22,125 bases of DNA from Catajapyx aquilonaris. Its lineage: Eukaryota. Both the position numbers and the translations under genes were made by a program. Below the pieces are notes generated by a model. That model was given only the letters and a program-made list of their open reading frames with translations. It did not search any database and was not told the DNA's origin. Each line of letters begins with the position of its first letter. Positions within the stretch are counted from its first letter, which is position 1. Positions 3,201 to 8,138 of this stretch are shown here, in pieces. The DNA is taken from assembly GCA_000934665.2 (NCBI GenBank), contig JYFJ02001304.1:62001-84125 (forward strand). Reading direction: 5' to 3'.

Positions 3201-6200
3201 CCCATCAGGTCAGATGTTTGCATGCAAAATTTCCAACTGCTGCCTTCAACATCCGATCACCTTTTCCAGCCCCACCAGCAGTGCGCAACCTGACAGTGTA
3301 CTCCAAGAGCAGGAGTCAAATATCTGTCCGATGGGCACGTCCTTGGCCTCCACACGGGGAACTGGAAGGGTATGACCTTAATGCCCGCAGGCGATCTCAA
3401 TGCATTACCCTGTATTGCGATAACAAGGAGTACACCCCGCCTGAACCGTGCGTCTTGTGGGATGATCTCTTTTGCTCTACCATCCTGGAACTGAGGGAAT
3501 ATGGGAGATATAAAGTTCAGGTTAGTTGTCACTTGCTTCTATACTCATGAAATTATCATCAAAAAGCTCACCACCGCAACTTCATTACACAACGCAGGGG
3601 ATTGTAACGATACTGATGAAATGTTATTCATGGCCTGTAAGTGGCATTCTTTACACGTCGATTCACAGATAACGGCGAGGAACTTGGGTGTCAATGCTGT
3701 TGGGCAAATATCAGAAACTGATATCATTACAACAGAAGAAGAAGGTAAATGACAAAATAATCTGCTCCTAATACTGCTCTGATTGTGATTGTGCAAATCT
3801 TTGCAGAACCTGGTCCACCCTCATCCCTAACCATCACCGCTAAAACCGCAAACCTTGTCCGTCTAAGTGTGGGACACCCGGACATTCTAAACGGAATCAT
3901 GGACAAATTCATCATCGCAATACTAAAATTCGACGGATATAGTGAGCCTCGTGTTGAAGTAATACCAGCCCGAGAACCAAGTAGGACCTACGATTACGAG
4001 GTAAGCCCGGTTGGCTTCAAGAATATGAAATCATTCGTTATTGTAAGAAATATTCATTCTACGTAGATTTATTGCCTTATTCGGAATTACCTGTTGCATC
4101 ATTTTTAATTACGCTTAGATTGTGGGTTTGGAATCTTCCACAACATACCGCATAGCAATACATGCGAAAACTGGAGCAGGAATTGGCCCACTTATAACGA
4201 GGATCATCAGCACCCCACCCACAGAACCAATCATCTCTCAAACCCTTCAGATCGACTATAGGTCAGCTCAAAACAGCTCTGTTGGGCTGGTGGTGTTCCC
4301 AGTGACACTGGATGAGGAGGCAGACAGGTTAAAGACATTGTCTTGCTATTTTGTCTCATGCAACCAACTTATTCCTTCCATTTTGTTCAGCTCATGCTTC
4401 GTCATCGTGATTCCACAATCAGGACGTGAAGGCGGCGATTCCGGATTATCTCCCGATTCAAACCTGGCAGACACATTCAAGGAGATAATCAAAGAGCCTG
4501 GCTTCTACATAGCCATGGAGATTTCCGAGGTGAGAGCAGAATAATGGCATATGCATTTCGATGTAATCATCATAAATGCAATAATGCCTGACATGTGTCT
4601 AGGAAAACCTAGCAGAGGCTCGGTGGGTGGAAGTGGGGAGCGGAGAGCAATCGAAAGGAAGTAACGGGGAATACTCCAACATGCCTCTGCTGCAAGGAGT
4701 GTACTACACGTTTGGTTTGGTGTGCATCAGCGAATATGACGGAGAGATCCGCCATGCCAGCAATTTTACAGATGGAGACTTCTACTTGGGTGAGGCCAAA
4801 TGGTTAATTTCCAAAAATTAAGAGTAGCCTAAGGATAGCAATATTTGACGCAGAATGAGAATAATATTCAGAATGGCCTATTAAAGGAGAAAGTGATTAC
4901 TAATTCACTCGTATTTAAGACCAAAATAGTATTTTGTCGCACCTGTGATAGACAAGTACGTGACAAATGGATAGTTTTACCTTTCGTTACTCTTTGATAA
5001 CTTATTTTTTCGTCTTGCTCTTAGGAAATGAACCTTTGGGAACTGATGGGGACGAACGGGACGGGACGGAAAATGAAGGAACATCCGTTGGCGTAATTGC
5101 TGGAATAACCCTAGCAGTTATTGTTATCATCATTATCATTGGAGCCATACCTCTACACATATGCAAGTAAGTTATTGTTTAATTTACACTAAACAAACAT
5201 TACTTACTGCAATGCACGAAGATTGCTACAAAACTCTTCTTATCAACTTCAGAAAGTGGAGTGGCAAGGAATCAACTTCCGGAGAAAGCATCCATCTGCC
5301 TGTGTACTTTCGCATGATGGATGGTGAGTCTCTCCGTCAATAATATTCTGAATATTGCGAGGAGCTCATAAAGCCGACAAATCCAAAATAGATTCTGAGA
5401 TATTTGAGAAAAACCTTTCGCGGCTGACCTAATTGCGGTACAAAAAAATGGCTGTGATTTAATTAATATAATTATGACCTTTTCAGAGACTGCGGCTATT
5501 GAAGAGCGTAGGTTTTTTTCGGAGCATGACAATGAAGCAGCAAATCAGAGCATGATGGCTTCTGAGATTCTCGAATTGCATAATCATTCGCTTCCAGTCA
5601 AAATGACCGACCTGGAAAAATATGTTGAATATGCTACTGACAGTGGGAGACTGAAGAAACAATACGAGGTAAATAATTCACAACATTTCATTTATTACCA
5701 AGACCATTTTTTTTTTTTGTAATTTCATATTTGGCTTAATTATTTCCCGGGGGTTTCAGGTGCTTCCCAAAGGACAGGCCGAGACTTCTCAGTATGGGAA
5801 ACGTCCGGAAAATATTCTGAAGAATAGATTCACTGACTTGTTGCCCTGTAAGAATCACATTATGCGGTAATCCAGTGCCAATAATTACATTTCTTCTCTC
5901 GCTTATGCTGCAGATGAACACAGTCGAGTGGTTTTGGAGGAAATTCCAGGAGAGAGATGCTCAGATTACATCAATGCAAATTACGTGCCGGTATATGTCA
6001 CATACGTACTTTTTTTAAAAAAATCTTACTAGTTTACAGGCTAAACTCTTTCGTGTCAATCGTGTGTATAGGGTTACAAGGCGGAAAGGGCTTATATTGC
6101 CACCCAGGCCCCGAAAACCAACACTGTGGTCGATCTCTGGAGGATGGTTTGGCAGGAAAATGTTGGCCTCATAGTGAACCTGACAGGTTTGGAGGAAAAT

Positions 6201-8138
6201 GGAAAGGTAAATCATGCACCCTGAATTTAATTTTTATTCATCGGATAAGTCGTGACCAACATGGAACTTCTTCTGCGTCTCATACTTGTACACTGTAATG
6301 TGAATTTTTTGTAGCGAAAATGCGTTCAATATTGGCCTGACAAAAACAAGTCCGAAATATACGGAGATATTAATGTGCGTTGGAACAAAAATGCGACCCT
6401 TCAGAGTGACTATGCCATCCGCCACTTCACTGTTCAACATTGTGGAGAAGAACGACAGGTACGCAGAGTCAATGTCCTTTATTATTATTATAATTGATCA
6501 TGTCGCTTACTTTGCAACTAGTTGATCCATGCCCACTTCACAACCTGGCCAGATCACCGAGTTCCTAGTTACTCACAATCCTTCGCATCTTTCTACAAAA
6601 AGCTGAGCCTCATTCCTCCTGGACCAGGACCAACAATCGTCCACTGCACGTAAGCTTAACTCGATTGAATATAATGAAAATAATTTCATCCCTGCAATTA
6701 TCCTTCTTCGTACAGTGCCGGAGTTGGCAACACCGGTACCTTCATCCTTGTGGACACGTTGTTCAAAATGGCAACTGCAGTCGGAAGTGTTGATTTCCCA
6801 AAGCAACTCGGAATCATGAGGCAAAACAGGCTGTACCTGGTGGACAACTATGTACGTTATTATTGATACCATTTGTGCACTCTTGAAGTACCTGGTTATT
6901 CTTGCTTTAACAGGAGCAATACAAGTTTGCGTATGTCATTTTGTGCGAGATCCTGTTTGAAGAGAATTGCAGCGTGCCTTGCAGCGAGTTCAAGTCTCGA
7001 TTCCAGCTCTTGAAAGATGTCGCAGGGAGTGCACCGCAGATGGAAATCGAGAGGCAGTACAAGATGCTGGAGAAGAAAAGGGGAAAGATGCTGGCCGACC
7101 AGAAAGATTGTTCTTCCGAGATGAAGGAGCTGACACGAGAGCCGTCCCTTTGCCCCCCTGGCCTGATCGCCGTCTCCTCCGCAAACCAACCCATATTGAT
7201 CAATGCAGTTTCAGTCAACAGTTATCAACAGAAGGACCGCTTCATCGCCACCCAGCTGCCTTTGCCCCACACCCAACACCACTTCTGGCACGTGGTCTAT
7301 GAGAAGATGTCACCCGCAGTTGTCATCTTGCAGCAACCTGACCCCAACAATGAGGTCAGCCTGATCTACACACTGCAGGTTTATTCTCTGGTTTATTTTG
7401 ACCAGGATTAATCTTTGCTTGCGCAGGATACGCCTGTCTTCTGGCCCGCAAATGATCAGGTGATCAGCCATGGTCACCTGAGACTGGAAGCCAAGAAGGA
7501 AACGACAGAAGGGAATATCACTCGGAGGATAATACTCTTGAAGAACAGCATTAAAGTCAGAACATTATTAACTATAGCCTATAATTGGTTGATATATTAA
7601 ATATTAATAACGGATTTTTTGCAGATGTTTGAGAAGCCTCGTGAGATCTGCCTGCTTCACCTCCTCGACTGGGAGCCGAATTTCAACTTGCCTCAGGAGA
7701 AGACCAGCCTCCTCAGTATGTACAATTGCCTGGAGAAGGTTCCCTCCAGCGGTGGACCCATCACCGTAGCTTGCTAGTCAGTATTTGAATTACCAGAATA
7801 TATTTTTTTGTTGCCAATATATTTGACTCAACTTGTCATTGTTATATTCCAGCGACGGGGCATCTGCTTGTGGCCTGTTTGCTGGAGTCTTTTTCATTTT
7901 TGACAAGATGAAGCTGGAACATGAGGCTGATGTTTATCTGGCTGTTGAGACAGTTCGTTGGAGCAATCCTCACTTCATCCGACATATGGTTTGGACATGT
8001 CTTAATTAGTATAACAAAATCACAAATTTCTTCATAAGCAATTTATTTTTTCTCTCTCTGCAGGACCAATATAAACATTGCTACGACTGCGCCTTGGCAT
8101 TCTTGGAATCCTTCGGCACTTATGCAAATTTCCAGTAA
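129..8138 (+). CDS. Receptor-type protein tyrosine phosphatase-like protein (MAM?-EGF-FN3x6-TM-PTP D1-PTP D2), 5' end outside window, probable pseudophosphatase
   Basis: Phase-consistent GT-AG exons: 129-267, 511-618, 790-885, 947-1114, 1288-1425, 1512-1645, 1721-1919, 1991-2064, 2127-2340, 2402-2520, 2620-2812, 2903-3208, 3270-3520, 3669-3744, 3807-4000, 4119-4327, 4391-4529, 4603-4789, 5025-5166, 5253-5323, 5487-5668, 5760-5847, 5914-5990, 6072-6206, 6315-6458, 6522-6649, 6716-6851, 6914-7354, 7427-7555, 7625-7776, 7853-7988, 8064-8138 (TAA). These sum to 4980 nt in one open frame. PTP motifs seen: [45 protein letters not shown]. No start codon or signal peptide in the window; the first two exons are less certain. 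Confidence 0.93.
790..1425 (+). other. Cys-rich EGF/laminin-EGF cluster (3 exons) of the RPTP ectodomain, Tie1/Tie2-like spacing
   Basis: [41 protein letters not shown]...CKGFTLC...CSCASGY...[17 protein letters not shown]...[16 protein letters not shown]. All three exons are phase 1-1. Confidence 0.9.
1512..4789 (+). other. Six fibronectin type III repeats plus an RPTP membrane-proximal domain
   Basis: FN3 signatures [80 protein letters not shown] and [13 protein letters not shown]. Followed by [26 protein letters not shown], typical of the LAR/R2B-type juxtamembrane ectodomain. Confidence 0.88.
5025..5166 (+). other. Transmembrane-helix exon of the RPTP
   Basis: [26 protein letters not shown] followed by KKW across the next splice junction. 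Confidence 0.9.
5760..6960 (+). other. PTP domain D1 with degenerate active site (VHCTAGVGNTG)
   Basis: Spliced translation of exons 5760-6851 and the start of exon 6914. Cys TGC at 6645-6647; the Arg position is AAC (Asn) at 6729-6731; Q-loop reads LVDNYEQY. Confidence 0.9.
7040..8110 (+). other. PTP domain D2, degenerate (VACYDGASACG)
   Basis: [30 protein letters not shown] in place of WPD, GPITVACYDGASACG, DQYKHCY. Confidence 0.88.

Follow-up and report, generated by a model that had tools for sequence, protein, structure and literature searches.

Structure of the receptor gene

The window analysed here is a 22,125-nucleotide stretch of the Catajapyx aquilonaris genome (contig JYFJ02001304.1, positions 62,001 to 84,125 of the forward strand). 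At positions 129..8138 (+) it contains most of a gene for a receptor tyrosine phosphatase-like protein, referred to below as the focal gene, with two tandem protein tyrosine phosphatase (PTP) domains, D1 and D2. Coordinates are window positions unless a contig is named. The gene was modelled by our own splice-site fit, without read support; a search for RNA data matching positions 5400-8200, introns included in the query, listed none. The complete model comprises 38 exons encoding 2004 amino acids (aa) with no stop, and all 37 introns are GT-AG. An earlier note on this DNA had described a frame of 32 exons free of lesions, which agrees with the fit and is now extended by six exons upstream of the window. 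Two paralogues, a and b, are tandem genes on another contig (C1648) and have canonical D1 motifs with the P-loop arginine. Family counts refer to a set of 90 receptors, assembled from 72 insect-type sequences among 120 matches, with Lar-like sequences left out, and 18 clade members taken from the tree described below; Hymenoptera are heavily represented in the set, whose rows are thus not independent of one another. The features of the gene are as follows.

G000:C554:60332-61756, same contig, upstream of the window: exons 1-6, with the start codon, signal peptide and Ig-like, MAM-like and FAMeT-like head
129..8138, + strand: exons 7-38 of 38 (splice fit); the 32 in-window exons join stop-free
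129..4789, + strand: ectodomain exons (end of the MAM-like head, EGF-like repeats, FN3 repeats)
4790..5024, + strand: intron in which similarity to paralogue b stops (breakpoint zone); the last blastn piece ends at 4794
5093..5149, + strand: single transmembrane segment, aa 1350-1368, the sole hydropathy peak above 1.9, preceding D1
5760..6958, + strand: D1, a PTP-fold domain predicted to be inactive (Pfam and family alignment)
5829..5831, + strand: Tyr to Phe in the phosphotyrosine (pTyr)-recognition loop; Tyr in 88/90 family members and in both Arg-intact paralogues
6546..6560, + strand: WPD loop; general-acid Asp retained at 6552-6554, the Gly two residues on replaced by Arg (6558-6560)
6645..6647, + strand: nucleophile Cys (Cys1648), retained
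6650-6715, + strand: 66-nt GT-AG intron splitting the D1 P-loop in phase 2 of the Thr codon
6729..6731, + strand: P-loop Arg to Asn (codon AAC), the diagnostic lesion; Arg in 89/90 family members
6843..6845, + strand: Q-loop Asp, a family trait and not a lesion; the second Q-loop Gln is retained at 6917-6919
7172..8114, + strand: D2, a pseudophosphatase domain; Cys retained at 7772-7774 (aa 1934), Arg replaced by Ala at 7866-7868, WEP in the D2 loop
8121..8132, + strand: C-terminal tyrosine motif YANF, retained; a candidate SH2 docking site

Pfam searches with single exons identified Methyltransf_FA (FAMeT-like), EGF, fn3 and Y_phosphatase domains, with a relevant family in 12 of 21 exons. The Ig-like and MAM-like labels of the head were assigned by eye or from weak matches; for MAM these are a blastp E value of 0.025 to the head of a fish PTPRM and, in the relative P0023, a Pfam E value of 2e-4 that lies below the cut-off. 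A Y-x-N-hydrophobic motif is located within the final 12 residues of 80 of the 90 family members. The lengths of 20 of the 37 introns are divisible by three (~12 expected), five of them consecutive within D1, which is probably due to chance. The intron before the juxtamembrane exon carries a repeat fragment of 80-90 bases (5359-5446), for which 19 further places in the genome are listed at 75-89% identity, and an (AAT)n microsatellite lies directly 3' of the stop codon (8247-8327).

Loss of the P-loop arginine in D1

The P-loop, KNRF, WPD, Q-loop and D2 motifs quoted in the earlier note were all found where it had placed them. The Asn at 6729..6731 occupies the position of the arginine in the HCx5R motif and is exceptional there: the single family D1 that lacks Arg has Lys, 86 of the 90 have an intact Cys-x5-Arg, and none has Asn. 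A profile search for broader relatives retrieved 150 proteins with 147 readable P-loops, of which 139 have both Cys and Arg and none has Asn. The same Thr and Asn occur in the P-loop of another copy in the genome, on contig C1794, together with the same WPD-loop Arg. This copy is a fragment, cut mid-exon at its 5' end and with a GT to TT change at a splice donor, that shares ~75% protein identity with the focal gene. The loss of the arginine is therefore real and older than the duplication that separated the two copies. A base-call error, which the earlier note had discounted, is ruled out by the identical AAC codon in this diverged copy. Two routes of rescue were ruled out by inspection: A-to-I editing of AAC gives Asp, Ser or Gly codons, and the 66-nt intron contains no alternative P-loop exon that another acceptor could join.

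The P-loop arginine coordinates phosphate and is described as essential in two reports (PMC8031367, PMC7997110); inactivity of D1 is therefore a strong prediction. Of the residues expected in an active classical PTP, the nucleophile Cys and the WPD general acid are present, as is the Glu of the E-loop, and the HCx5R arginine is missing. Thus, D1 is very probably inactive, as had been proposed, although this is a prediction from sequence.

The changes in D1 extend beyond the P-loop. Among D1 columns conserved at ≥90% in the family, 17 of 92 are altered in the focal gene compared with 4 in paralogue a and 2 in paralogue b (6 of 184 in a and b together; Fisher p 4e-5). The altered columns fall in the pTyr loop, the TQGP motif, the E-loop, the WPD loop and the P-loop. 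The Gly that is replaced in the WPD loop occurs in 86 of the 90 family members. The D2 domains present a different picture, with 10 of 37 columns differing in the focal gene and 10 and 9 in the Arg-intact paralogues (Fisher p 1.0).

Two of the features that the earlier note had taken as signs of inactivity or peculiarity turned out to be the family norm. The Q-loop Asp occurs in 82 of the 90 members and in both Arg-intact paralogues, and the second Q-loop Gln in all 90; likewise, the D2 domain retains its Cys in 89 of 90 and has Arg in 0 of 90, and the Arg-intact paralogues share this degenerate state. The Phe of KNRF has an intermediate standing: it is indeed rare in the family (1/90), but it also occurs in 17 of the 147 broader matches with an intact Cys-x5-Arg. 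Judged by these residues, the focal D1 is shifted to the state typical of the family's D2, with the Cys kept and the Arg lost. Each PTP domain lacks an essential catalytic residue and the receptor frame is intact, as expected of a receptor PTP (RPTP) with two pseudophosphatase domains.

A protein-database search with the P-loop exon returned 12 candidates, none at E≤10, which is weak evidence, and one with the exon at the D1-D2 junction returned four fish PTPRM-like matches among 203 candidates, the focal protein itself not being among them. In the PDB, the search matched just PTP chains of a generic kind from vertebrates and plants (best E 1e-15).

Paralogues and family relationships

Across the genome 69 PTP matches were listed by the Pfam search, and exon searches identified at least five members of the receptor family: the focal gene, a, b and the copies on contigs C1794 and C23. 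These counts are lower bounds. The C23 copy has an internal deletion and a frameshift and lacks the P-loop exon. An allelic haplotig as the source of b or of the C1794 copy is ruled out by the 20-25% DNA divergence. Paralogue a (C1648, ~16.5-26 kb) seems to have a shorter ectodomain, in which the EGF-like exons and the later FN3 repeats align; a FAMeT-like exon was not found for it. Contig G000:C9404 (4593 bases) carries another copy of the receptor head, 92-97% identical to b in DNA and 91% in protein, with 39 differences in 600 in exons 3-5 and 12 in 459 in exons 6-8 (p 0.003). This copy may be an allele or a recent duplicate of b, and its FAMeT-like tip may be diversifying.

Ranked by D1 identity, the nearest sequences are receptors from insects that share the Pfam set of the focal gene (PF12248, FN3 and two PF00102). 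A D1-D2 tree was built from 127 of 180 sequences, namely the 126 that span both domains and the C1794 fragment. The four copies from this genome that it includes form one clade with support 1.0, which is sister to 24 insect-type sequences with a local support of 0.675; the enclosing clade of 31 sequences (support 0.984) adds barnacle and shrimp proteins just outside. This placement identifies the host as an arthropod. The Pfam set, the grouping with insect sequences, the Q-loop Asp and the Arg-less D2 all place the focal gene in a family of insect tandem RPTPs with FAMeT-like, EGF-like and FN3 modules. Members of this family carry database names such as 'RPTP T-like', 'kappa-like' or 'F-like' (for example, Bacillus rossius XP_063217566.1 and Odontomachus brunneus XP_032672132.1). 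They share with the focal gene the domain order, the Q-loop Asp, the D2 with Cys kept and Arg lost, and the YANF tail, and differ from it by the Cys-x5-Arg that is intact in nearly all of their D1 domains. The focal gene is not an orthologue of the vertebrate R2B receptors (PTPRK/M/T/U), which have a MAM-Ig-4xFN3 architecture, because it contains FAMeT-like and EGF-like modules. The fly receptor Ptp52F is reported from flies alone, and is classed with the single-domain R3 receptors, in PMC5336234. A literature search, thin on subscription papers, returned no paper on an arthropod receptor pseudophosphatase or on this insect family.

Predicted dead D1 domains also occur in the mayfly Cloeon dipterum. 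Five family members were retrieved from this species, three with Cys to Ser in D1 (XP_065344143.1, XP_065344235.1 and CAB3368658.1) and two intact, and the dead ones lie on two separate branches of the tree. As in the focal gene, they occur beside intact paralogues; unlike it, they have lost the nucleophile instead of the Arg (one also has Arg to Lys), have a separate origin in the tree and are mostly partial models. Four of the five sequences of this expansion (P0092, P0027, P0018, P0142 and P0051), in which intact and Cys to Ser domains are mixed, lie on a contig of identical size. A further candidate, Ephemera danica P0043, was dropped since its gene model lacks the WPD stretch.

An ectodomain shared with paralogue b

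The focal gene resembles paralogue b to very different degrees outside and inside the membrane. By blastn, a stretch of DNA that starts upstream of the window and runs to position 4794 aligns to b at 74-84%, several introns included, and past that point just one 161-base exon piece aligns. The ectodomains share 76% aa identity over 1247 codons with a synonymous divergence (dS) of 0.25-0.28; the corresponding values for the PTP region are 53% and 1.45-1.64. The mismatch at fourfold-degenerate sites is 0.07-0.25 in eight bins before the breakpoint, 0.38 in the bin that spans it and 0.48-0.70 in the four bins after it. Faster protein evolution cannot explain a step at synonymous sites, and hence one of the genes took its ectodomain from the other. 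The pattern points to an exchange of the ectodomain between the focal gene and b, by one DNA-level event or conversion tract, that ends just before the transmembrane exon.

The dS of the split between the focal gene and the C1794 copy is 0.31, which resembles the age of the ectodomain exchange. The donor could be a duplicate of the dead lineage, whose head passed to b, or b itself, whose head passed to the focal gene, dS being near saturation. Mis-assembly of the focal gene is disfavoured because the C23 copy also joins the signal and Ig-like exons to a D2 of the focal type. Intron identity was discarded as a clock, since shuffled controls were often equally high under the gap settings used.

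Recent ectodomain identity combined with old signalling halves has been described for paired receptors. In the leukocyte families KLRC, PIR and Ly49, the ligand-binding domains are homogenised (PMC3210942). These receptors resemble the focal gene and b in having a recently shared ectodomain on anciently diverged signalling halves of opposite predicted output. They differ in that immunoreceptor tyrosine-based inhibitory motifs are set against activating adaptors and that homogenisation is repeated across species, whereas here an enzyme is paired with a dead enzyme and a single exchange is seen in a single genome.

Selection since the loss of the arginine

The ratio of nonsynonymous to synonymous substitution rates (dN/dS) between the two Asn-bearing copies, the focal gene and C1794, is 0.37 by counting and 0.48 by a codon model (446 codons; p 7e-6 against 1). 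By domain, this pair gives 0.41 for the D1 part (p 0.0013) and 0.40 for D2 (p 7e-5). The lineage leading to the focal gene has a dN/dS of 0.47 (p 0.013 against 1), which differs from the 0.15 of a and b (p 8e-5); across the analyses a and b gave 0.10-0.15. The ectodomain has a ratio of 0.51-0.61 (p 6e-7 against 1). Simulations of neutral decay over aa 1328-2004 produced on average 6.5-11.6 stops, and ~20 stops would be expected in the ectodomain. Of 2000 simulations per setting, 4 ended without a stop in aa 1328-2004 at t 0.09 and none at t 0.14 or 0.18.

The cytoplasmic half has thus evolved at a dN/dS of 0.35-0.5, below 1, since the Arg was lost, and the ratios indicate that it has been maintained under relaxed constraint. 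The purifying selection proposed in the earlier note is upheld to this extent, with the qualification that, next to the Arg-intact paralogues, it is relaxed by a factor of three to four. Taken together, the substitutions show that D1 lost its Arg and then drifted at several other active-site positions, while the D1 fold, D2, the YANF tail and the frame stayed under selection.

Genomic neighbourhood

The focal gene is embedded in a tandem array of THAP and C2H2 zinc-finger genes (8879-21244, + strand), with more copies upstream. Five THAP-like exons lie in the window, and after each comes a zinc-finger exon of 372-762 codons; for the first, Pfam confirmed both THAP and zf-C2H2. The THAP exon at ~12409-12700 looks frame-shifted or start-less. 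A broken fragment of a zinc-finger exon lies ~1.2 kb before the start codon of the focal gene, and an AT-rich low-complexity tract follows the last zinc-finger gene (21330-21790).

Proposed function and alternative explanations

The focal gene is likely to encode a functional non-catalytic receptor. The precedent is PTPRU, a vertebrate R2B receptor that binds and protects substrates of its active paralogue PTPRK (Hay et al. 2020, PMC7320164). It was reported there to be the one receptor phosphatase with both domains dead; a further source also names it as the receptor whose two PTP domains are pseudophosphatases, while mentioning reports that PTPRU is active (PMC8269279). PTPRU is like the focal gene a tandem-domain receptor with both domains predicted to be inactive, the Cys kept, an altered pTyr loop and active paralogues alongside. 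The manner of inactivation differs: PTPRU has WPE, a divergent pTyr loop and a PTP-loop Thr and keeps the P-loop Arg, whereas the focal gene keeps WPD and has lost the Arg. The ectodomains differ as well, that of the focal gene having FAMeT-like and EGF-like modules and more FN3 repeats. Moreover, the PTPRU changes are described as evolutionarily conserved and its inactivity was measured; the focal case comes from one genome and its inactivity is predicted.

The focal receptor would share its extracellular partners with b, or have similar ones, and would be drawn to the same membrane sites. It would dephosphorylate nothing and would hold substrates or adaptors via D2 and the tail, and in this way it could dampen, redirect or buffer the signal of b, as PTPRU does for PTPRK. 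Binding functions of such parts are described in several reports: the D2 of PTPRK recruits Afadin (PMC9640194), the phosphorylated tail of PTPRA recruits Grb2, Src and BCAR3 (PMC7959691), and the YxN tails of R3 receptors promote binding of Src-family kinases (PMC5336234). On balance we lean slightly towards viewing the focal gene as a pseudophosphatase of the PTPRU type, in competition with b, its active twin. If it is a functional non-catalytic receptor, the chances that competition with b is its main role are about even.

Several observations weigh against this interpretation. Compared with a and b, the focal lineage has a three- to four-fold higher dN/dS, and on its terminal branch the ratio is not significantly below 1 in the D1 part (p 0.24), D2 (p 0.087) or the FN3 region (p 0.44). 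The positions at which it differs from C1794 are not clearly biased away from conserved columns (27/127 versus 85/308, p 0.19). On the branches of the C1794 and C23 siblings dN/dS is below 1 as well, yet both copies are broken, and past selection is for that reason no proof of present function. As for competition with b, a single exchange event requires no selection for pairing, and the 24% of ectodomain residues that differ from b are enough for a change of ligand.

The elevated dN/dS and the two broken copies among the three of this lineage are also what would be expected of a decaying duplicate, relaxed after the Arg loss, whose copies die successively and whose focal member is silent or intact merely for now. 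Nonetheless, decay is an improbable account of the focal gene, in which no stop, frameshift or splice lesion has accumulated over 2004 codons and 37 introns against the numbers of stops simulated for neutral sequence, and in which dN/dS is significantly below 1 in both halves. A complete and selected ectodomain, together with D1 changes that extend past the catalytic residues, would equally suit an adhesion molecule or ligand sink, in which function resides in the ectodomain alone; the cytoplasmic domains would have no particular partner and would be retained as folded ballast that aids trafficking or stability. The cytoplasmic dN/dS (0.35-0.48) is, however, no higher than that of the ectodomain, and the conservation of D2 and the YANF tail matches that in the two paralogues; this explanation, too, seems rather improbable.

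Two further explanations give D1 itself a chemical role, and we regard both as very unlikely. In the redox-sensing role raised in the earlier note, the kept catalytic Cys1648 would pair upon oxidation with Cys1561 of the KC motif, which we take to be the backdoor position; both residues are retained. PTPRU forms a disulphide of this kind (PMC7320164). However, both cysteines are family defaults (86/90 and 72/90), so that their retention says little, loss of the Arg should raise the pKa of the Cys and lower its reactivity, as inferred from known PTP chemistry, and the dead mayfly copies have lost the Cys itself. The redox role thus gains no support past the retained cysteine. Alternatively, D1 might still be an enzyme, weak or with another substrate, in which the WPD-loop Arg (6558-6560) replaces the lost P-loop Arg. 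The retained Cys, general-acid Asp, E-loop Glu and second Q-loop Gln, and the new Arg shared with C1794, are in keeping with this. Yet some D1 domains whose P-loop is intact, P0014 and P0072 among them, have Lys or Arg at the same place in the WPD loop, so that the new Arg need not compensate, and the 17 altered conserved columns of D1 speak against residual catalysis.

Returning to a non-catalytic receptor acting alongside b, the focal gene would work like PTPRU although it is no R2B orthologue, and loss of the Arg would be a route to inactivity that is new relative to PTPRU. Dead paralogues are not rare in expanded invertebrate families. A broader scheme, which we consider doubtful, would be an arthropod system of paired receptors, in which an active receptor and a dead twin keep a common ligand-binding ectodomain by DNA exchange, dead twins arise recurrently (Arg to Asn here, Cys to Ser in mayflies), and the ratio of the two sets the phosphotyrosine output in response to a single extracellular cue. 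As an independent case, the focal gene would, together with the recurrences in the mayfly, make the dead twin beside an active paralogue a repeated design and no vertebrate one-off. The shared ectodomain offers an unusually clean natural experiment, with the same outside and an active or a dead inside, and the focal case draws attention to a widespread family of insect receptors.

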